Below are positions 5,697 through 36,030 of a stretch of DNA of 36,030 nucleotides, in pieces; the first letter of the stretch is position 1, and each line of letters opens with the position of its first letter. The translations under genes and the position numbers were made by a program. The notes under the pieces were generated by a model, which saw nothing but the letters and a program-made list of their open reading frames with translations, had not been told where the DNA came from and made no database searches. The stretch is taken from assembly GCA_964348745.1 (NCBI GenBank), contig CAYGDT010000003.1, forward strand, positions 1 through 36,030. Direction: 5' to 3'. Source of the DNA: an uncultured Candidatus Peribacteria bacterium (GTDB lineage Bacteria; Patescibacteriota; Gracilibacteria; Peribacterales; Peribacteraceae).

Positions 5697-8296
5697 TGCA
5701 TCATTTCAGCATACCAAACTTGTCAAACGCACTCTGTATTCATCTGCTATCATCCCCCACCGTGTACTCCCGTGCCTCAAATCTTTCGGAAACCCAGCGC
5801 AGACGCTTTGTACGACAGCGAATGGTTGTCGTGCATGCAGGATTACTCATTTTGCTGCTGGTTATTGTGGCGCGGCTACTTGAACTTCAAGTTCTCAAAG
5901 GAGGTGACTATCGTGCGTTGGCTCAATCGCAACACTATGGCGGAGTTGTTTTGCCGGCGAAGCGCGGCGAGATCCTCTCAAGAAATAGTAAGACAGGTGA
6001 AACTAGTCTTTTTGCCACCAATACCACACTCGACATGGTGTACGTCGATCCGGTCGTGACGGATGATCCGGTTCTCGTTGCCAGACGTCTTGCGGAAATG
6101 CTCGTGACGGAGGATTTCCATGATCTGTGCACTCGAGGAAGTAAAGATTGTCCTTTAGAGCTTTCCGGATACTTCACTGATTCTTTTGATCCGCTTGCGC
6201 AGGTGCGACGTTTGGAATCCGGAGCGATCTTGGAGCCTATGCATATGATTTTTGCAGTGCCGGATCACCCTGAAAATACACCTTCCATCGAAGATGTTCG
6301 CAGCAGTTTTACTTCGGATATTCAAAAGAAAATCAGCGAGAAGCGAGTGACGTTTGTCCCTCTGAAATACGGAGCTACAAAAGAGGATATGTCTGCTGTC
6401 GATGCACTTGCGATTCCGGGGGTGTATGTCGTGCATGACACCAGTATCATCTTCGCGAATCCCGAGGCCGTTTCCCAGAATAAATTATCATCTGTTGCGC
6501 GCGATCTCTCCGAAATTGTTGAAACAGACGAAGATGTTTTGCAGCGCTTGCTGCGTTCCCGTCCACTGCGGTACGTACCGGTCATGCGCAAGTTGCCACC
6601 GGATCTCAGCTTGAAAATCAAGGAAATGAAGCTTCAGTCGATGAAGGACACCCAGAGCAGCAAACAGCAGGCTGAGACGCGCGAAGCAGCAGCATTGATT
6701 AGAGACCCCCTTCGATCAATTGCTCTGATCCCGGAACATTGGCGATACTACCCCGATGGCAGGGTTGCTTCGAGCGTCGTAGGGTTTCTCAACTCCCAAC
6801 AGGAGGCGCAGTATGGTATTGAGCGAACGTTTGATGCGGAGCTCAAAGGGCAGGAGGGTCTGATCTCGTCGGTATCCGATCCACAAGGGGGTCAGATTCT
6901 TACTGCAGAACAAACCATTATTGACCCGAAAGACGGCGATACGATCGTGTTGACCATTGATCGCTTCGTGCAAAAGAAAATTGAGGAAATCATGGATCAG
7001 GCAGTCATCGATTTTCATGCAGAGAGCGGGCAAGCGATCATGATGGATCCGTATACCGGTCGTATCATTGCCATGGTCAACGCTCCGACATTCGATAGTA
7101 ATAGCTTCGGAGGCGTTTACGATAAAGAGCCGCTGTATGTCGATGAAGGCAAGAGGAATAAAATCGTTGTGGAGATCTACCATCCGGTAACCAATCAGTT
7201 CGTTGTGAAGGGCTACATCGATGACATTTTTGGCAATGGTCGTACCGCCCTCGCTGTAATAACACAACAGGTGCTTGATGAAATAGAGAAACTCTATGAT
7301 CTTCGCGACATTGCTCGTTACTACTTATATATCGGTGACAACGATCGAAGAGAGGTTTTCCCAACGCAACGAGACGACATCTGGCTGAAGTTTAAAAACA
7401 ACGTCGGTGTGGGGGCATATCTCAATCGCACTATTCAGCAGATCTACGAACCGGGATCGGTTTTCAAGCCTATTACGATGGCTATTGCAATTGATCAAGG
7501 AGAGATCTCTCCTGAGGATACATATGATGACAAAGGTTTTATAAAGGTCGATGAGTTCACCATAAGAAACGCACTCAACGCAACGTACGGAAAGGTCAAC
7601 ATGGTAACGTGTATTCAGTTCTCCATTAACACGTGCATGACATCGATTTCCGAAAAGCTCGGAAAAAAACTTTTTCACCGCATGATCGAGCGTTTCGGAT
7701 TCGGAAAGATCACCGGAATAGAATTGGAAGACGAATTGCCAGGGGAGATTCTTCCATGGAAAAAGTGGAGTAACTCTCTTCTGGCGAATGCGGCATTCGG
7801 ACAAGGCGTATCCGCGACTCCGCTGCAAGTTATCACCGCTTGGTCGGCACTGAGCAACGGTGGCAAACTCATGAAGCCAACGATTATTGATAGTATTATT
7901 AAGAGCGATGGAACAGTGATAACGACGCAGCCGCGCATCATCGATCAGGTTATTACTCCCGAAACATCGGATACGATTACAGCGATTCTGGTTTCTTCTG
8001 TCGACGAAGGTTGGGGCAAGAGCGCCTCGATCCAGGGGTACGCGATTGCAGGGAAAACAGGTACAAGCCAGATTGCAGGTCCCGGTGGAAAGTATGAATC
8101 TGGTACGGGTTCGGGTATCGCATCATTTGGCGGATTTGCTCCCGTTCCGGATCCAAAGTTTCTCATGCTCGTAAAGTTTGATCGTACAGCGACCAAAGCT
8201 TCGGAGCATGGAGCTGGCTCCGCGGCTCCCGTCTATAAAAAAATCGCGGAGTTCCTCTTCGATTACTACGGGATTCCTCCGGGAAGGGAGGAGTGA
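5690..8296 (+). CDS. class B penicillin-binding protein (PBP2/FtsI-type transpeptidase) with large insertions
   Basis: TM helix (VVVHAGLLILLLVIVARLL), AKRGEILSRN dimerisation-domain motif, SxxK = SVFK (YEPGSVFKP), SxN = SIN, and KTG = KTGTS. The start is uncertain: TTG 5690, ATG 5696 or ATG 5822. Confidence 0.9.
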   Translation: MAMHHFSIPNLSNALCIHLLSSPTVYSRASNLSETQRRRFVRQRMVVVHAGLLILLLVIVARLLELQVLKGGDYRALAQSQHYGGVVLPAKRGEILSRNSKTGETSLFATNTTLDMVYVDPVVTDDPVLVARRLAEMLVTEDFHDLCTRGSKDCPLELSGYFTDSFDPLAQVRRLESGAILEPMHMIFAVPDHPENTPSIEDVRSSFTSDIQKKISEKRVTFVPLKYGATKEDMSAVDALAIPGVYVVHDTSIIFANPEAVSQNKLSSVARDLSEIVETDEDVLQRLLRSRPLRYVPVMRKLPPDLSLKIKEMKLQSMKDTQSSKQQAETREAAALIRDPLRSIALIPEHWRYYPDGRVASSVVGFLNSQQEAQYGIERTFDAELKGQEGLISSVSDPQGGQILTAEQTIIDPKDGDTIVLTIDRFVQKKIEEIMDQAVIDFHAESGQAIMMDPYTGRIIAMVNAPTFDSNSFGGVYDKEPLYVDEGKRNKIVVEIYHPVTNQFVVKGYIDDIFGNGRTALAVITQQVLDEIEKLYDLRDIARYYLYIGDNDRREVFPTQRDDIWLKFKNNVGVGAYLNRTIQQIYEPGSVFKPITMAIAIDQGEISPEDTYDDKGFIKVDEFTIRNALNATYGKVNMVTCIQFSINTCMTSISEKLGKKLFHRMIERFGFGKITGIELEDELPGEILPWKKWSNSLLANAAFGQGVSATPLQVITAWSALSNGGKLMKPTIIDSIIKSDGTVITTQPRIIDQVITPETSDTITAILVSSVDEGWGKSASIQGYAIAGKTGTSQIAGPGGKYESGTGSGIASFGGFAPVPDPKFLMLVKFDRTATKASEHGAGSAAPVYKKIAEFLFDYYGIPPGREE

Positions 8297-9651: not shown

Positions 9652-9673
9652 ACGAGAAAATGGAAAGGACAGT

Positions 9674-9701
9674 ATATTAATACTCTTCCGTCAAATGTCA
9701 A
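9674..9701 (-). promoter_or_regulatory. candidate sigma-70-type promoter of the two-gene orphan cassette
   Basis: Minus strand: TTGACA (complement of 9696-9701), N16, TAATAT (complement of 9674-9679). It is followed by the CT-rich leader actgtcctttccattttctcgtATG. Confidence 0.5.
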
Positions 9702-12454: not shown

Positions 12455-13552
12455 ATGCCTGATTCCGCTACCGCCACCGCTCAAAAATCTTCCGGTTCAC
12501 AGATCCATCTCGATCTGCAGCAGCTGCTCGACAGCCTCTTTATGGTTCTGACGGACAAGGAGTCTATGGTTATCCAAAAACGCTTCGCATTGAAGGGAGA
12601 ACAAAAGCAGACTCTTGAAATGATTGGTAAACATTTTAATGTTACTCGCGAGCGCATTCGGCAGATCGAGAGCATTGCACTTTCGAAACTCAAGCGCACA
12701 GTGCGCACCACACGTCTCGACGAGGTCAATGCGTTGGCGAAAGATATCCTACGACTTCATGGTGGTGTGTTGCGTGAGGACGGGCTCGTATCCGATTGCC
12801 TACGGCATATTGCAGGTGCCAGCGAGATAGACGGAGCGGTTTTGCGGCTGAGTTTCTCTATTGATTCTGACATGGTTGCAGGCAACCGTGCCCAAACATT
12901 CATTCCTTTCTGGAGGATCGAGAGTCTTGCACTTGATGATATTTCAACCATTGTGAACAATATTGTTAAAATCTTAAAGAAGAGAAAGAACTGTATGCAA
13001 TCGGATGAAATCGTTTCGGCTATTCAGGCATTGAATCTCTTTGACGGTAGAGTTCCCAGCAAGGAACTTATTTCAAGTTGTCTGGAGATCGATGAGCGTC
13101 TTCGCCATATTTCCGAAGGGTGGGGGCTAACCGAGTGGCGTTTTGTCCGTCCGAGAAGCATTCGTGACAAGGTGGAAATCATTCTCCGCAAAACCGGCGA
13201 GCCACTCCACTTTATGGACATCGCCAACCGCATAAAAGCTGCACAATTTGATCACAAGAACGTAACGGTTCAAGCAGTGCATAACGAACTCATCCGTTAT
13301 CCGCAGTTCGTATTGGTAGGAAGAGGACTGTATGCGCTTAAGGAGTGGGGCTACGAGCCCGGTACGGTTGCGGACGTCATCGAAAAGATTCTGATTGAAA
13401 AGGGACCCTTGAGTAAAAAAGAAATCATCATCGAAGTTGCCAAGCAGCGTACAGTGAAGGTTGGCACAATTAGTTTGAATCTTCAAAAGATGCCGTACTT
13501 TAAGCGTGTTGGACGAGCAGTGTATGCTTTTGACTCGGAAGCGAAGAAGTAA
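12455..13552 (+). CDS. sigma-70 region 4 domain protein fused to two HARE-HTH-like modules (no region 2)
   Basis: ESMVIQKRFALKGEQKQTLEMIGKHFNVTRERIRQIESIALSKLKR is a clear sigma-70 region 4 HTH. The C-terminal half has two HARE-HTH-like units (FMDIANRIKAA...VHNELIRYPQFVLVGRGLYALKEW and KKEIIIEVAKQ...LQKMPYFKRVGRAVYAF). No -10-recognition region 2 motif is visible. Confidence 0.8.
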   Translation: MPDSATATAQKSSGSQIHLDLQQLLDSLFMVLTDKESMVIQKRFALKGEQKQTLEMIGKHFNVTRERIRQIESIALSKLKRTVRTTRLDEVNALAKDILRLHGGVLREDGLVSDCLRHIAGASEIDGAVLRLSFSIDSDMVAGNRAQTFIPFWRIESLALDDISTIVNNIVKILKKRKNCMQSDEIVSAIQALNLFDGRVPSKELISSCLEIDERLRHISEGWGLTEWRFVRPRSIRDKVEIILRKTGEPLHFMDIANRIKAAQFDHKNVTVQAVHNELIRYPQFVLVGRGLYALKEWGYEPGTVADVIEKILIEKGPLSKKEIIIEVAKQRTVKVGTISLNLQKMPYFKRVGRAVYAFDSEAKK

Positions 13553-13608: not shown

Positions 13609-14418
13609 ATGCGACCTCTTATAGCTTTTGTAGCACTCGTAGCTCTTTGTAGCTGTTCGCAGCAGGTTCTCCCGCCGTTACCCGAGGGTGAACAAACCGT
13701 TACAGGAATACTGTTATCTGCACCTCTTTCTGCCGTCCGTCGTGGGTCGCACTTTATCGAACAAGACGGTGTGAACGTGTATTACGCGGAGAGTTCCCTT
13801 ATTAATCTACGCGACTACGAAGGCAAGAGAGTAACGCTGCGTGGATTTCTCGAGCACAACACCGATACAGATGATCTCTCCGTCCTCGTTGCACACTCCG
13901 TAGTGGATGTGGAGGAAACTACTCAAGAGTACACACTGAGCGAAATTTCTGTACTCGTCACAGTTCCTATCCAATGGAAGATGGTAAAGCGTGAGGGATT
14001 GTTTCAGTTTCGCCCCGAAGGCGACGAAGATCCCCTCCTGACTATTTGGCAGAGTGAAGGTACGGAGCTCCCCGATGGTGGGGTGCCGATCGTTGTCGAT
14101 GCGACACGGGCAACGCGGTTGATTGATGATCTTTCAGGAACGCAGATTGTCGCCATAAAACGCAGTGATTCCATCATGCAATTGCGATTCAGTCCGGGGA
14201 AGCGCACAAATGCTGATCGGTTGCTCGAGAATTTCATCGATGTACTTAAATCTGTGCATCTCGTTGGCAGCTCATCGAGTAGTTCTGCACTTCCGCAGTC
14301 CGGTAGCGGTGCGCTCGGAAACCCCTGCGGCGGTTCTGCCGGTGTCCTCTGTCCGGCAGGTTCCTTCTGCGATATTCAGGATTTTCAGGAGAATATAGGA
14401 CACTGTAGGACATTGTGA
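13609..14418 (+). CDS. lipoprotein of unknown function with a Cys-rich C-terminus
   Basis: Signal peptide with lipobox (MRPLIAFVALVALCSCSQ). C-terminal GNPCGGSAGVLCPAGSFCDIQDFQENIGHC. Confidence 0.75.
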   Translation: MRPLIAFVALVALCSCSQQVLPPLPEGEQTVTGILLSAPLSAVRRGSHFIEQDGVNVYYAESSLINLRDYEGKRVTLRGFLEHNTDTDDLSVLVAHSVVDVEETTQEYTLSEISVLVTVPIQWKMVKREGLFQFRPEGDEDPLLTIWQSEGTELPDGGVPIVVDATRATRLIDDLSGTQIVAIKRSDSIMQLRFSPGKRTNADRLLENFIDVLKSVHLVGSSSSSSALPQSGSGALGNPCGGSAGVLCPAGSFCDIQDFQENIGHCRTL

Positions 14419-14456
14419 TTGGTGATTGGTGATTAGTGATTGGTGATTAGTGATTT
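14415..14456 (+). repeat. 6 x 7-nt tandem repeat GTGATTR
   Basis: GTGATTG GTGATTG GTGATTA GTGATTG GTGATTA GTGATTT. The array starts inside the TGA stop (14416-14418) of the lipoprotein gene. Confidence 0.9.
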
Positions 14457-14558: not shown

Positions 14559-15206
14559 ATGGCGTTTTCATCACGCATGCGCTGGGCTGTAGGATTTCTT
14601 CTTTTTGCCGGTATTGTCGCAACAGTCGTACTGCAGAGCGACTTCGTCGTTTCGCGTGCTTCACTCATAGCTCAGAGCATTCCGACTGGTCAGCAAATGA
14701 TATGCGGTGATGGGATCGTCCAAGATGGAGAGCAGTGCGACGATGGTTCGCAGAATAGAAACGTCTCGGGAGCGCGTTGCAGAGCAGACTGTACTTCGGC
14801 TCGCTGCGGCGACGGCGTGCTGGATTCCTCGGAAATTTGCGATGATGGGAACCAATCAAACGGAGACGGCTGCGATTTCTTCTGCAATATTGAAGCAGGC
14901 GACCCCGGTATTACCGTGATCGGTTCACCGACGAATACGGATGACGTTATCAATATCAGCTTCCCTGCTCTCCCCGGAGTATTGCAGCCTCACGTGCCTG
15001 CAAACGTTCCGTCGGTCTATCAACAGCCGCCCGTTTTGCCGACACTTCCAAATATCCAGTCTCTCCCCATGCAGATCCCCTTGGCGCAGTTTCAGCCTCT
15101 TATTGAGTCGCACGGTCCCGCCGGTAAAACAGGCCCTGCTGCAGTAGCGATTATTGGGGCTGGCATAGCCGGTGGTGTGGGATGGATTCGAAAGAGGGGG
15201 AGGTAG
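14559..15206 (+). CDS. secreted cysteine-rich repeat protein (Myxococcus-type CGDG/CDDG repeats) with a C-terminal anchor
   Basis: N-terminal TM/signal (WAVGFLLFAGIVATVVL). Two repeats: CGDGIVQDGEQCDDGSQN... and CGDGVLDSSEICDDGNQSNGDGCDFFC. Pro-rich linker. C-terminal AGKTG, then a hydrophobic helix (PAAVAIIGAGIAGGVGWI), then RKRGR. Confidence 0.8.
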   Translation: MAFSSRMRWAVGFLLFAGIVATVVLQSDFVVSRASLIAQSIPTGQQMICGDGIVQDGEQCDDGSQNRNVSGARCRADCTSARCGDGVLDSSEICDDGNQSNGDGCDFFCNIEAGDPGITVIGSPTNTDDVINISFPALPGVLQPHVPANVPSVYQQPPVLPTLPNIQSLPMQIPLAQFQPLIESHGPAGKTGPAAVAIIGAGIAGGVGWIRKRGR

Positions 15207-15211
15207 GGTTG

Positions 15212-15232
15212 AGTTCTTAGTTCTTAGTTCCT
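15212..15232 (+). repeat. 3 x 7-nt tandem repeat AGTTCYT
   Basis: AGTTCTT AGTTCTT AGTTCCT, starting 6 nt after the TAG stop at 15204-15206. Confidence 0.8.
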
Positions 15233-15320
15233 AGTGGTGATGATTCGATGCATTTTTTATATATATTTATCATTTGCAACCAAAGGTGTACGTCGTGCAA
15301 TACTATCTGCTTGCATTGTA

Positions 15321-15338
15321 GGTGTACAGGTGTACACT
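15321..15338. promoter_or_regulatory. palindromic operator-like site A (GGTGT-N8-ACACT) overlapping a candidate promoter
   Basis: GGTGTacaggtgtACACT contains the 8-bp perfect palindrome GTGTACAC. It overlaps the spacer and -10 of TTGCAT (15311-15316), N16, TACACT (15333-15338). An extra GGTGTAC half-site lies at 15285-15291. Confidence 0.45.
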
Positions 15339-15484
15339 CACATCCGCCATCAGCCTTCGCTCCTCGATCTTTCTTGCTTTCCTATTACTTGTAGCTCTCT
15401 GTGCTTCACGTCAGAAGCTACGGCCGACAGGTCAGCCTTCGCTCTTTGTTATTGTTTATTCACTGCACTACTACGATTCATTTT

Positions 15485-15526
15485 CAATTCTCAATTCTCC
15501 ATTCTCCATTCTCCATTCGCCATTCT
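15485..15526 (+). repeat. 6 x 7-nt pyrimidine-rich tandem repeat CMATTCT
   Basis: CAATTCT CAATTCT CCATTCT CCATTCT CCATTCG CCATTCT, ending 3 nt before the ATG at 15530. Confidence 0.9.
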
Positions 15527-15529
15527 CTT

Positions 15530-15772
15530 ATGCATTCTCTACCTCCAACGCCGGCCCGTGTATTTTCTCGCTCCGTTGTTATCGATTGCAGCAGGAATGC
15601 ACTGCAGAAACGCTTCGATCCCCGCTCGCTCCTGCAGTGGGTCCAAAGCTTTCCCTCTCGCGACGATGTCCATGTCTACCTTGGCAATGTCGCATTCAAC
15701 GGACAACGCGGCCTCATGCGTCAGCTACAGGCTATGGGATGCACGGTTACGTGCAGGCAGTACCAAAGCTAA
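15530..15772 (+). CDS. candidate small protein (80 aa) of unknown function
   Basis: The ATG follows a heptamer array in the same way as recA, mraY and gap. Product: MHSLPPTPARVFSRSVVIDCSRNALQKRFDPRSLLQWVQSFPSRDDVHVYLGNVAFNGQRGLMRQLQAMGCTVTCRQYQS. The C-terminal 60 aa look like a normal globular sequence and faintly resemble the first half of NYN/LabA-type domains (weak, unverified). The gene is not certain, because all three plus frames are open here. Confidence 0.3.
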   Translation: MHSLPPTPARVFSRSVVIDCSRNALQKRFDPRSLLQWVQSFPSRDDVHVYLGNVAFNGQRGLMRQLQAMGCTVTCRQYQS

Positions 15773-15783
15773 ACTTCCATAAT

Positions 15784-16800
15784 TTATTCAGACTCAGCAG
15801 TCAGCTGTTCTGTAAAAAACGCTACCGTTTTTTCCATGAAGTCGTTCCATTGCGAGACAAATTCATGCTTTTCTCCATCGTAGACTACAAATGTGGAGTC
15901 CTTCAGCTCTTCTTGTAGCGCAGTACCTAGTTCTATCGACCAGTCCAGCGGTACATCGGTGTCTTCGCTTCCGTGAAAGATTAACACAGGATCATCGATC
16001 GTTCGTAGATGCGTGAGCGCGGAAATGGCATTCCATGGTTCGGTGTTTTCTTCTTTTTCACCCCAGACTGCAATGGTCTTGTCGCCTTCCGGCCTTTCAC
16101 GGCGCCAGCGATTGAAGTTTTTGTATGCATCACCGGATACGGGCGCGTAGAGAACCGCAGCATCGATCATTTCAGGATGCGCGGTGAGTATATTTAGCGT
16201 GACTCCCCCACCGAGTGAGTGCCCGAGCATGCCAACGTGCTTTGTGTTGATGGCACTTATTTCACTCAGATCGGATTCACGAATTGCATTGATAGCATTG
16301 ATGCTATCCATTGCATATTCCAGTCCTGCATCGTAGATCTCACGGGTATCAGGGCTATCGTCTGAAAGCCCATGTCCGCGGTAGTCGGTATGCAGTACGG
16401 CAAATCCGTGCCGAGCGAGGTAGTCTTGTTCACGCTTCAACCCTCTACCAACGGTGTAAACCTTGGGGTCGATATAGCCGTGGTTCAGTATAATCAAAGG
16501 AAACGGTCCAGTGCCGCGTGGGACATTGAGTATTCCGCTGATACGCAGTCCATTACTTAAATACTCGATCCGGTACCGTGTGTAGCTCTCTGTACGTGCT
16601 AGTTGTTCCAATAACTTCAACCCCGCTCCTACCAGTTTCATCTTTGCAAAGTGATCAAGTGTAAGTGATGCAGGGACTTGTTCTATGGAATCGAAAGCTT
16701 CGATGATAGATGATGCATTGCTCGAAGTCCCCTCTCCACTATGAGAATCCTGCACTGGGGCGCAGGCTGTGAGGAGTATCAGTAATACAATGCGCTTCAT
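15784..16800 (-). CDS. lipoprotein alpha/beta-hydrolase (S9 / dienelactone-hydrolase-like serine hydrolase)
   Basis: Lipobox signal MKRIVLLILLTAC, nucleophile elbow GHSLGG, and a late His (GEKHEF). 338 aa. Confidence 0.85.
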   Translation of the reverse strand: MKRIVLLILLTACAPVQDSHSGEGTSSNASSIIEAFDSIEQVPASLTLDHFAKMKLVGAGLKLLEQLARTESYTRYRIEYLSNGLRISGILNVPRGTGPFPLIILNHGYIDPKVYTVGRGLKREQDYLARHGFAVLHTDYRGHGLSDDSPDTREIYDAGLEYAMDSINAINAIRESDLSEISAINTKHVGMLGHSLGGGVTLNILTAHPEMIDAAVLYAPVSGDAYKNFNRWRRERPEGDKTIAVWGEKEENTEPWNAISALTHLRTIDDPVLIFHGSEDTDVPLDWSIELGTALQEELKDSTFVVYDGEKHEFVSQWNDFMEKTVAFFTEQLTAESE

Positions 16801-16882: not shown

Positions 16883-16900
16883 GGTGTACAATATTACACC
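16883..16900. promoter_or_regulatory. palindromic operator-like site B (GGTGT-N8-ACACC)
   Basis: GGTGTacaatattACACC has perfect 5-bp arms and an A/T-rich 8-nt spacer. It overlaps the -35 zone of a leftward promoter whose -10 is TAGAAT (complement of 16861-16866), upstream of the hydrolase gene. Confidence 0.5.
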
Positions 16901-16964
16901 ATAATAAATGTGTACGAACGTAAAGTCCATCTACTTGCCCATCTCAGAAGATACACATATCGTA

Positions 16965-16982
16965 GGTGTACGTATAGACACC
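16965..16982. promoter_or_regulatory. palindromic operator-like site C (GGTGT-N8-ACACC) at the predicted recA transcription start
   Basis: GGTGTacgtatagACACC. It lies immediately downstream of TTGCCC (16935-16940), N17, TATCGT (16958-16963), so it covers the predicted +1. Confidence 0.5.
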
Positions 16983-17052
16983 TTTATTACTCATCGTACT
17001 AAACACTTTGGTTAGATAAGAGTAACAATTGTGCTTTATACCGAAAAATTTT

Positions 17053-17087
17053 CCATCTTCTATCTTCAATTTTCCATTATCCCTTTT
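17053..17087 (+). repeat. degenerate 5 x 7-nt pyrimidine-rich array in the recA leader
   Basis: CCATCTT CTATCTT CAATTTT CCATTAT CCCTTTT, followed by tcccactatcatc and the ATG at 17101. Confidence 0.7.
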
Positions 17088-17100
17088 TCCCACTATCATC

Positions 17101-18186
17101 ATGTCAAAGACTGCTACTCCTGTAAAACCTATGACCGATCAGAAAACTTCCGCGAAGAAAGACGACATAAAGCAAGTAAAGGATGATGCCATTGCTGCGG
17201 CACTTGCACAAATTGAAAAGCAGTACGGCGTTGGTGCCATCATGAAGATGGACGAGCACGCCGGCAGGCACATTCCTCGTTTCCCTTCAGGTTCCCTATC
17301 ACTCGATATCGCTCTTGGCGGTGGAATTCCGCATGGACGCATTATTGAAATCTACGGACCGGAGAGTTCGGGAAAAACAACTCTCAGTCTCCATGCAATT
17401 GCCGAAGTGCAACGCAAGGGCGGCAGAGCGGCCTTTATAGACGCTGAGCACGCACTTGATGTTCAGTACGCAAAGAAGATCGGCGTAAACATTGACCAAT
17501 TACTCGTATCTCAGCCGGATTCCGGCGAACAGGCACTCGAGATTTGCGAGACGCTCGTGCGCTCCGGTGCAGTCGATATCGTTGTCATTGACTCCGTTGC
17601 AGCGCTCACACCGCAGTCCGAAATCGACGGTGCCATGGGAGATGCACAAATGGGGACGCAGGCGCGTCTCATGAGTCAGGCGCTCCGGAAACTAACGGCC
17701 ATCGTCAATAAGACGCAGTGCAGCATCATTTTCATCAACCAAATTCGTATGAAGATTGGCGTGATGTTCGGCAACCCTGAAACGACTGCAGGCGGTCAGG
17801 CGCTTAAGTTCTACGCATCACTTCGATTGGATGTTCGCAGGATCGACAAAATCCTGGAGAAAATCCCCGGAACCGACGGAAAAGCAGCCGAACAGGAAAT
17901 TGTCGGAAACCGCACGCGTGTGAAAGTGGTGAAAAACAAGGTCGCGCCTCCATTTCGACAGGCAGAGTTCGATATCCTCTATGCACAGGGAATTTCCAAA
18001 GAGGGGGACATCCTCGATCTTGGCGTAAAGTACGGCGTCGTCGAAAAGAGCGGTGCATACTTTCGAGTCGGCGAGGAGACGATCGGGCAGGGTAAAGAAC
18101 AGGCGCGCATGTATCTCAAAGATAACCCAAAACTCACAGATCGCTTGGAGAAGGAAATTCGTAAACTTGCCGAAGTTGCCATCTAA
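17101..18186 (+). CDS. recA: recombinase RecA
   Basis: Walker [11 protein letters not shown]1/L2 region ([30 protein letters not shown]), 361 aa. The track TTG start at 17029 would translate the heptamer array ([14 protein letters not shown]), so I prefer the ATG at 17101. Confidence 0.97.
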
Positions 18187-21870: not shown

Positions 21871-21985
21871 CGGAAAATGATAGAGGATAAAGGATAGTGG
21901 ATAATAATTGAGTGATTTCATTTTATTACCCTTTATCCACTCTCCACTCTCCGTTATCCTTTACACACTCTCCGTTATCCTACTG
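21865..21985. repeat. purine-rich heptamer array followed by a complementary pyrimidine-rich heptamer array (long imperfect inverted repeat)
   Basis: Left arm, 21865-21920: GGATAAC GGAAAAT GATAGAG GATAAAG GATAGTG GATAATA ATTGAGT GATTTCA. Right arm, 21930-21985: CCTTTAT CCACTCT CCACTCT CCGTTAT CCTTTAC ACACTCT CCGTTAT CCTACTG. GGATAGTGGATAA (21893-21905) pairs with TTATCCACTCTCC (21933-21945) with 1 mismatch. GGATAACGGA (21865-21874) is perfectly complementary to TCCGTTATCC at both 21950-21959 and 21971-21980. Confidence 0.85.
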
Positions 21986-21987
21986 CT

Positions 21988-23049: not shown

Positions 23050-23077
23050 CTCTGCGGAAGAGAAATCTGTATTTTCT

Positions 23078-23112
23078 CCATTCTCAATTCACTATTTCGC
23101 CTCTACTATAGA
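23078..23112 (+). repeat. degenerate 5 x 7-nt pyrimidine-rich array in the gap leader
   Basis: CCATTCT CAATTCA CTATTTC GCCTCTA CTATAGA, then cgc and the ATG at 23116. The upstream GAGAAAT (23060-23066) can pair with ATTTTCTC (23071-23078) with one bulge. Confidence 0.65.
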
Positions 23113-23115
23113 CGC

Positions 23116-35969: not shown

Positions 35970-36030
35970 TGGTGGGCGCCGGGGGATTCGAACCCTCGAC
36001 CCTCTCGGTGTAAACGAGATGCTCTAACCA
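35970..36030 (-). tRNA. tRNA-Val (anticodon UAC), 5' end cut by the window edge, CCA encoded
   Basis: The reverse complement reads TGGTTAGAGC A TCTCG TTTACAC CGAGA GGGTC GAGGG TTCGAAT CCCCC GGCGCCC A CCA. This gives an anticodon loop with TAC, a canonical T-loop (one A-C mismatch in the T stem), a 7-nt 3' acceptor strand, discriminator A and CCA. Confidence 0.85.

Follow-up and report, generated by a model that had tools for sequence, protein, structure and literature searches.

The gap at positions 15207-15783 of a 36,030-nucleotide contig segment from an uncultured Candidatus Peribacteria bacterium (assembly GCA_964348745.1, contig CAYGDT010000003.1; the whole segment is referred to here as the window) very probably holds a complete small transcription unit, made up of a promoter, an operator, a leader and an 80-codon gene. 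The gene belongs to a conserved orphan family, and its promoter has an operator and an architecture in common with the nearby recA promoter. Since the core of this operator is that of a known LexA-box type, we consider that the small gene most likely belongs, under tight repression, to an SOS-like regulon. Peribacteria and other candidate-phylum bacteria are uncultured, and gene regulation in them is barely known. The locus is an unusually clean, comparatively supported cis-regulatory unit common to recA and a conserved orphan gene, and opens a way into studying how these bacteria respond to DNA damage, giving both a testable operator motif and a new small-protein family.

A conserved gene of 80 codons

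The frame that opens with the ATG at 15530 is a real coding sequence under strong purifying selection.

15530-15772, + strand: coding sequence of the 80-amino-acid protein, recognised from homologues, profile searches, codon-position variation and purifying selection

Using the translation as a query, we recovered 15 proteins at 63-79% identity, mostly of 80-82 amino acids and one of them named Candidatus Peregrinibacteria, and a profile search raised the total to 45 homologues. When 1.84 billion cluster representatives were searched exhaustively with HMMER, 173 clusters (50% identity) matched at an expectation value (E) ≤0.001. All 173 are 57-164 amino acids long, so the domain is never fused to other domains. 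A scan of species-representative genomes placed the family in 28 of them, of which nearly all carry a Peribacteria or Peregrinibacteria label; the 29th match, in a Bdellovibrionaceae genome, was false and belongs to a 378-amino-acid protein. The family is uncharacterised, and its named members are all Peribacteria or Peregrinibacteria.

Comparison with relatives, the check proposed in a preliminary description made from the sequence alone, confirmed that the open reading frame (ORF) is conserved as a protein. Residues D19, W37, P42, L66, G70, C71 and T74 are invariant in the family alignment, and the C-terminal family motif reads LQA(M/L)GC(T/R)VT. When 13 relatives were compared along an ungapped core of 44 codons, the proportion of nonsynonymous differences (pN) was 0.116 against a saturated proportion of synonymous differences (pS) of 0.784, and their rate ratio, omega, was 0.04-0.08 where estimable. 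Variable columns numbered 21, 12 and 43 of 44 at codon positions 1, 2 and 3, respectively. The suggestion that the ORF might be a decaying gene remnant is refuted, because the family as a whole keeps a complete length of about 80 amino acids.

A more specific form of that suggestion, in which a longer gene for an NYN/LabA-type nuclease (PF01936) was cut down to the present ORF, started from a faint likeness of pattern. Both have the same order of first strand-helix-strand-helix-strand elements, with an Asp ending the first beta-strand, and Pfam searches of 32 family members gave sub-threshold scatter that included NYN in two of them (best E 0.042) and STAS_2 in one. The window protein itself had no Pfam match at E ≤10, and nothing was found by Pfam in any of the three plus-strand frames of the gap or in its single long minus-strand ORF. 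The likeness to NYN/LabA domains mentioned in the preliminary description therefore lacks support. At ~80 amino acids the protein is half the length of the complete ~140-amino-acid domain, and it lacks further conserved acidic residues, the family having a single invariant one. The uniform length of about 80 amino acids, the conserved stop position and C-terminal motif, the strong purifying selection and the absence of longer relatives among the 173 clusters leave the remnant reading with next to no probability, and we consider it effectively refuted.

An operator common to the small gene and recA

The small gene is preceded by a sigma-70-type promoter, TTGCAT-N16-TACACT (15311-15338), whose spacer is filled by a perfect palindrome. 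The elements of this promoter and of the recA promoter are as follows.

15283-15301, + strand: upstream half-site module AAGGTGTACGTCGTGCAAT, kept as AAGGTGTACG..(G/C)CAA in the close clade
15311-15316, + strand: -35 hexamer TTGCAT, identified on comparative evidence only
15322-15337, no strand: operator, perfect 16-bp palindrome GTGTAC-AGGT-GTACAC, filling the promoter spacer and overlapping the first five -10 bases
15333-15338, + strand: -10 hexamer TACACT, invariant in 32/32 loci
16884-16899, no strand: recA operator O1, GTGTACAATATTACAC, 1 mismatch
16910-16925, no strand: recA site O2, GTGTACGAACGTAAAG, degenerate, a half-site module upstream of the -35
16935-16963, + strand: recA promoter TTGCCC-N17-TATCGT, which in relatives takes the form TTGAC(N)-N17-TA(N)(N)GT
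16966-16981, no strand: recA operator O3, GTGTACGTATAGACAC, 2 mismatches, starting 2 nt past the -10 and covering the predicted transcription start

The palindrome, contained in the 18-mer GGTGTACAGGTGTACACT at 15321-15338, is conserved together with the gene. Exactly one perfect GTGTAC-N4-GTACAC was present in 37 of 43 loci, always immediately upstream of the small gene, and the other six were truncated, a false match or carried palindromes with 1-2 mismatches. Across 32 loci, the palindrome had no mismatch in 29, one in two and two in one. CTTGC(A/T) or CTTGAC is kept 16 nt upstream of TACACT in ~30 relatives. In the distant half of the family, neighbouring genes vary (P0041, P0040, P0042 and P0035 have no conserved partner gene) and the operator is kept. 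Distant relatives carry GTGTACGAGCGTACAC at this position, which identifies the palindrome, not a direct repeat, as the conserved feature; the direct-repeat look of the window site, with GGTGTAC appearing twice, is a by-product of the N4 bases of the close clade.

The motif is also specific. Throughout ~255 kb of Peribacteria loci, sites with at most two mismatches were found only at the small gene and upstream of recA, bar three strays, one of which (in L030) was inspected and lies inside a surface-protein coding region. The window contains four such sites against 0.57 expected, one at the small gene and three around the recA promoter 1.1 kb downstream, and nine copies of GGTGTAC against 1.55 expected.

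Alignment of the recA upstream region from 12 loci revealed conserved islands in a fixed order: O1, as GGTG(T/C)ACAA-N3-(W)(Y)ACACC; a module, AAGGTGTACG-N-C-N-GACAAG; the -35; N17; the -10; and O3. The T, T and G of the -35 and the T, A, G and T of the -10 are invariant, two to three palindrome sites occupy orthologous positions in the 12 relatives, and O3 begins 1-2 nt past the -10 throughout. O1 and O3 are separated by 81-82 bp in all 12, or ~8 helical turns, a constancy that suggests cooperative binding or looping. We take the ATG at 17101 as the true recA start, judged from its conserved TATCATG context.

The two promoters are built alike, each with a half-site module 26 nt before the -35 and a palindrome on or directly past the -10. 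At the small gene, 26 nt separate the start of the half-site GGTGTAC (15285-15291) from the -35; at recA, the counterpart of its module (16908-16926) stands at an equal distance and is kept in the 12 loci. The preliminary description had noted the same order of elements at the two genes; this was correct and holds in a stronger sense, as the architecture and the operator itself are common to both. Its proposal of a small gene co-regulated with recA is likewise supported by the conserved protein and by the common motif and architecture in the 12 relatives. The small gene lies just upstream of recA throughout the close clade and directly adjoins it in L009-L011.

A candidate SOS-like circuit and the role of the protein

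We propose that one repressor most likely acts on both promoters, which it would shut by occluding RNA polymerase and release together. Because the operator core, GTAC-N4-GTAC, is that of the LexA box of cyanobacteria and Gram-positive bacteria, LexA or a protein similar to it is the probable repressor, and the small gene would be a tightly repressed, DNA-damage-induced effector. Palindromes lying over a -10 or a transcription start have the geometry of repressor sites, and from this together with the LexA-box core we infer an SOS-type circuit. LexA-box consensus sequences are AGTACWNWTGTACT in cyanobacteria and CGAAC-N4-GTTCG in B. subtilis (PMC3091678); the operator core equals that of AGTACWNWTGTACT and is one base per half-site off the B. 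subtilis box. LexA motifs are known to diverge from one phylum to another, and the SOS core includes recA across phyla (PMC8565304). Papers citing the study of a Patescibacteria SOS network do not describe the motif of that network.

Likeness to a LexA/SOS regulon extends beyond the core to the several operator copies at recA, placed over the -10 or the transcription start, and to the small lineage-specific gene bearing the tightest site. In E. coli, sulA-type genes are likewise small and lineage-specific and have the tightest LexA site. The flanks differ, being GT-GTAC...GTAC-AC here versus A-GTAC...GTAC-T. A second parallel is the radiation/desiccation response of Deinococcus, a lineage-specific DNA-damage regulon in which the DdrO repressor reportedly acts through a promoter palindrome, the radiation/desiccation response motif (RDRM), that controls recA and small lineage-specific proteins without an assigned role (PMC8072749, PMC5552922). 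The Deinococcus motif is another one, the proteins have no sequence relation to the family described here, and an XRE-type, metalloprotease-cleaved repressor is not in evidence at this locus. Many radiation/desiccation-response transcripts of Deinococcus are leaderless.

Several observations weigh against this reading. Neither LexA nor another candidate repressor was found, whether in the window itself or among the 347 kb of family loci, which were searched with E. coli LexA. The operator has two known target genes, so that 'regulon' means two promoters. A simple consensus scanner misses the small-gene promoter, whose -35 matches the consensus at 3/6 positions, and in more distant members, half of the family, the gene is not linked to recA. 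Searches with a predicted structure of the protein gave no Foldseek match in PDB below E = 0.05 and a single poor, unnamed match in BFVD (E = 0.008, root-mean-square deviation 8.7 Å); without a recognisable fold relative, its role is a guess.

The short list of targets and the fact that no lexA was seen would also suit a regulon unconnected with damage, in which the operator might serve the uptake and recombination of DNA (competence), say, or a response to growth phase. Some Gram-positive bacteria do have recA in their competence regulons. A palindrome over the -10 or the transcription start has instead the geometry of repression, the operator core matches LexA boxes, and recA counts among the core SOS genes across phyla (PMC8565304), so we regard a non-damage regulon as unlikely.

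The small protein could alternatively be the regulator itself, a novel basic DNA-binding autorepressor that acts on GTGTAC-N4-GTACAC and modulates recA. Its own promoter carries the strongest and most conserved operator, as is typical of autoregulated repressors, and no other regulator was found nearby. The window protein (80 amino acids) is basic, with an isoelectric point (pI) of 10.3, and soluble; the family is basic throughout (median pI 9.6, with 80% of members above pI 9) and lacks any hydrophobic segment. The AlphaFold2 model from the 32-sequence alignment, of moderate confidence, has a predicted local distance difference test score (pLDDT) of 74.1 and consists of a disordered N-terminus followed by beta-alpha-alpha-beta-alpha-alpha-beta; another AlphaFold2 model of the protein scored 64.5. 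This predicted three-stranded alpha/beta fold would contain no helix-turn-helix, ribbon-helix-helix or winged helix, and the protein matches no DNA-binding family. As it also has no obvious signal-sensing mechanism, and a LexA-box-type core already supplies a candidate binder, we think autoregulation improbable.

Under the preferred SOS-like reading, our working guess is that the protein is a damage-response effector, perhaps a division inhibitor or a modulator that binds RecA or nucleic acid. Small, clade-restricted, damage-regulated proteins of other bacteria include the division inhibitors SulA, YneA, SidA and SosA and the RecA modulators DinI and RecX. Like them, the protein here is small, poorly conserved and clade-restricted; such genes often lie beside recA or lexA, and DinI, at 81 amino acids, is of closely similar size. 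There is no sequence or profile similarity, and the soluble, basic protein here is unlike YneA, SidA and SosA, which are membrane proteins, and DinI, which is acidic. Searches of Pfam, NCBIfam and PADLOC gave no match to DinI, SulA or other named SOS effectors, and NCBIfam and PADLOC gave no match for the family at all.

Two further candidate relationships were rejected. Matches to ovalbumin and to MlaB/STAS in a profile search of PDB sequences (E 0.006-0.17) were judged spurious. Barstar (PF01337) was considered on account of an identical order of secondary-structure elements and a common 'GC.(I/V)T' C-terminus. It was the top PDB match in Foldseek, at a template modelling score of 0.29 and E = 0.056, and hhalign gave it a 2.9% probability over 12 columns.

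The regulatory logic is thus of a known kind, a repressor-operator circuit resembling SOS, and the protein family is uncharacterised. In the furthest-reaching form of this reading, the protein would found a new fold-level, Peribacteria-specific family of damage-response effectors that forms, with recA, a minimal SOS-type regulon governed by an undescribed LexA-box variant, GTGTAC-N4-GTACAC, and expressed from an ancestrally leaderless messenger RNA (mRNA). We advance this form tentatively and hold it to be less likely than not.

Leader expansion, the stop-free tract and the surroundings of the gene

Transcription of the small gene would start at about 15342-15346, in agreement with the start near 15345 predicted in the preliminary description, which fits the geometry seen in relatives. 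The mRNA would then run through a long leader into the coding sequence.

15345-15529, + strand: predicted 5' leader of 185 nt, lineage-specific, pyrimidine-rich and without ATG
15350-15371, + strand: leader element copy 1, beginning TCAGCCTTCGCTC, equivalent to CCATCAG(Y)CTTCGC, conserved where the leader begins in all leader-bearing relatives
15432-15453, + strand: leader element copy 2, an internal duplication that L005, L017 and L018 likewise have in their 71-77-nt leaders
15479-15527, + strand: CATTCTC heptamer array, 7.0 copies in Tandem Repeats Finder, abutting the start codon

In 22 of 32 loci, the distance from TACACT to the start codon is 6 nt (19 loci) or 7 nt (three loci), and the start codon is ATG in 20 of these and GTG in two. 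The start codon thus coincides with the expected transcription start, which would make the ancestral mRNA leaderless. The window departs from this geometry, with 191 nt between TACACT and ATG. The remaining ten loci, all from the subclade of the window, have leaders of 33-44, 71-77 or 191 nt, and all ten open with a conserved (N8)CCATCAG(Y)CTTCGC. Leaders of 71-77 nt hold a second, diverged copy of the CCATCAG(Y)CTTCGC segment, and in the window leader both copies are present, with ~48 nt in between, and the T/C-rich end is expanded. The exact 13-nt repeat TCAGCCTTCGCTC at 15350-15362 and 15432-15444 is the core of this duplication, whose copies can be followed over 22 nt, with 82% identity. 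The lineage of the window inserted a leader, duplicated part of it and amplified its C/T-rich end, so that the 13-nt repeat and the heptamer array are both products of leader expansion. The series from leaderless to 191 nt in close relatives is a natural example of the gain and expansion of a 5' untranslated region (UTR).

The heptamers are also an expanded version of a more general habit of the genome. C/T-rich tracts, often composed of heptamer repeats and ending in TAT(C/T)ATG, precede recA (17051-17100), a MraY-like gene (21933-21987) and the glyceraldehyde-3-phosphate dehydrogenase gene (23075-23115), the last carrying the TCTCCATTCTCAATTC unit that is found in the array of the small gene. 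A similar tract stands before a hypothetical gene at 9652-9680 (minus strand). No GGAGG-type Shine-Dalgarno sequence was visible before the 29 window genes examined, which hints at translation initiation in this lineage that does not use one.

The preliminary description had also raised a structured or processed RNA, and the leader is where such an element would lie, either as a structured cis-regulatory RNA (riboswitch or attenuator) or as a separate small RNA. It is long for a bacterial 5' UTR, its first part (CCATCAG(Y)CTTCGC) is conserved, and it contains an internal repeat. Its predicted fold is no better than that of shuffled sequences (minimum free energy -22.1 versus -22.65 kcal/mol, z = +0.18), it has no terminator-like hairpin, and Rfam scans at the gathering threshold and at E ≤10 returned only noise, with no match in the leader. 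Relatives have leaders of anything between 0 and 191 nt, and in most family members there is none. An RNA element is very unlikely on this evidence.

A further oddity of the gap, a tract said to contain no plus-strand stop codon in any frame from 15401 to 15768, is real and slightly longer than described, the bounding stops starting at 15392 and 15770, 378 nt apart. This is the longest all-frame stop-free interval on either strand of the window, followed by intervals of 286, 253 and 204 nt, and it consists of a 137-nt pyrimidine-rich leader stretch and 240 nt of coding sequence without off-frame stops. A first-order Markov model gives a probability of ~3e-4 for the whole tract and ~0.09 for the leader part alone, and stop-free 240-nt windows occur in real genes in 5 of 7423 cases. 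The tract as a functional signal did not survive comparison, as it is conserved in no homologue: each of 31/31 has 2-10 off-frame stops. We read it as chance, an accident of one genome. Chance is made harder to accept by the coding part, for which none of 5000 synonymous resamplings (same amino-acid sequence, local codon usage) was free of off-frame stops; the chance reading relies on non-conservation and on the post-hoc selection of the region. The case illustrates that a statistically striking oddity can be biologically empty.

Absence of stops in the tract has had one practical consequence, a wrong-frame gene call.

15240-15782, + strand: spurious ORF of 180 amino acids, in another frame than 15530, called in three public assemblies of the organism (L001-L003)

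The true 80-amino-acid protein had no identical entry in the protein collection searched, and our analysis corrects what is a systematic annotation error in public assemblies. We also considered whether the locus has overlapping or alternative-frame coding, as three ORFs of 123-198 amino acids (180, 198 and 123) overlap here, gene callers picked that of 180 amino acids, and the protein sequence makes a complete lack of off-frame stops improbable. In all 31 homologues, stops interrupt both remaining frames of the coding region, no frame yields a family match, and third codon positions vary in the 80-amino-acid frame only. The seemingly conserved N-terminal extensions that some database homologues carry (KGVRRAI...GVRVYT) are translated promoter/operator DNA, which is itself conserved. 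Coding in another frame is accordingly extremely unlikely. In two distant relatives, a called 30-codon ORF directly follows the small gene and overlaps its stop (L042 10297-10389 and the P0040 locus 6339-6431).

The gap is bounded on the left by a gene for a DUF4215 Cys-repeat protein (14559-15206, plus strand) and on the right by an alpha/beta hydrolase gene (15784-16800, minus strand), with recA beyond the hydrolase. Every motif of the preliminary description was found where it had been placed, in a reading of 14900-16100 with a script check for each motif. Its premise was sound in that the flanking genes are convergent; the accompanying view that no promoter is expected between them did not stand, because a third gene lies between the two.

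15207-15282, + strand: spacer 3' of the DUF4215 Cys-repeat gene, containing AGTTCTT heptamers at 15212-15235 and, ahead of the promoter, a stretch rich in A/T

This spacer is not kept in relatives, whose upstream gene ends nearer the promoter. Its AGTTCTT array (3.4 copies) stands directly 3' of the DUF4215 stop, and another intergenic heptamer array, GTGATTG in 5.9 copies, lies at 14415-14455 between a gene for a 269-amino-acid hypothetical protein and the DUF4215 gene. The slot between the small gene and recA varies, being occupied by the convergent hydrolase in the window, by a convergent Peptidase_S41 gene in L005 (5237-6304) and by nothing in L009-L011 (L009 5325-5670). Further upstream in the window, a 365-amino-acid protein (12455-13552, plus strand) carries sigma-70 region 4 alongside a HARE-HTH domain and has no other sigma regions; it is kept in the equivalent neighbourhood of relatives (L008 1-524). 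A partial transfer RNA gene (Rfam RF00005, 35.6 bits) lies at the window edge, at 35973-36030 on the minus strand.

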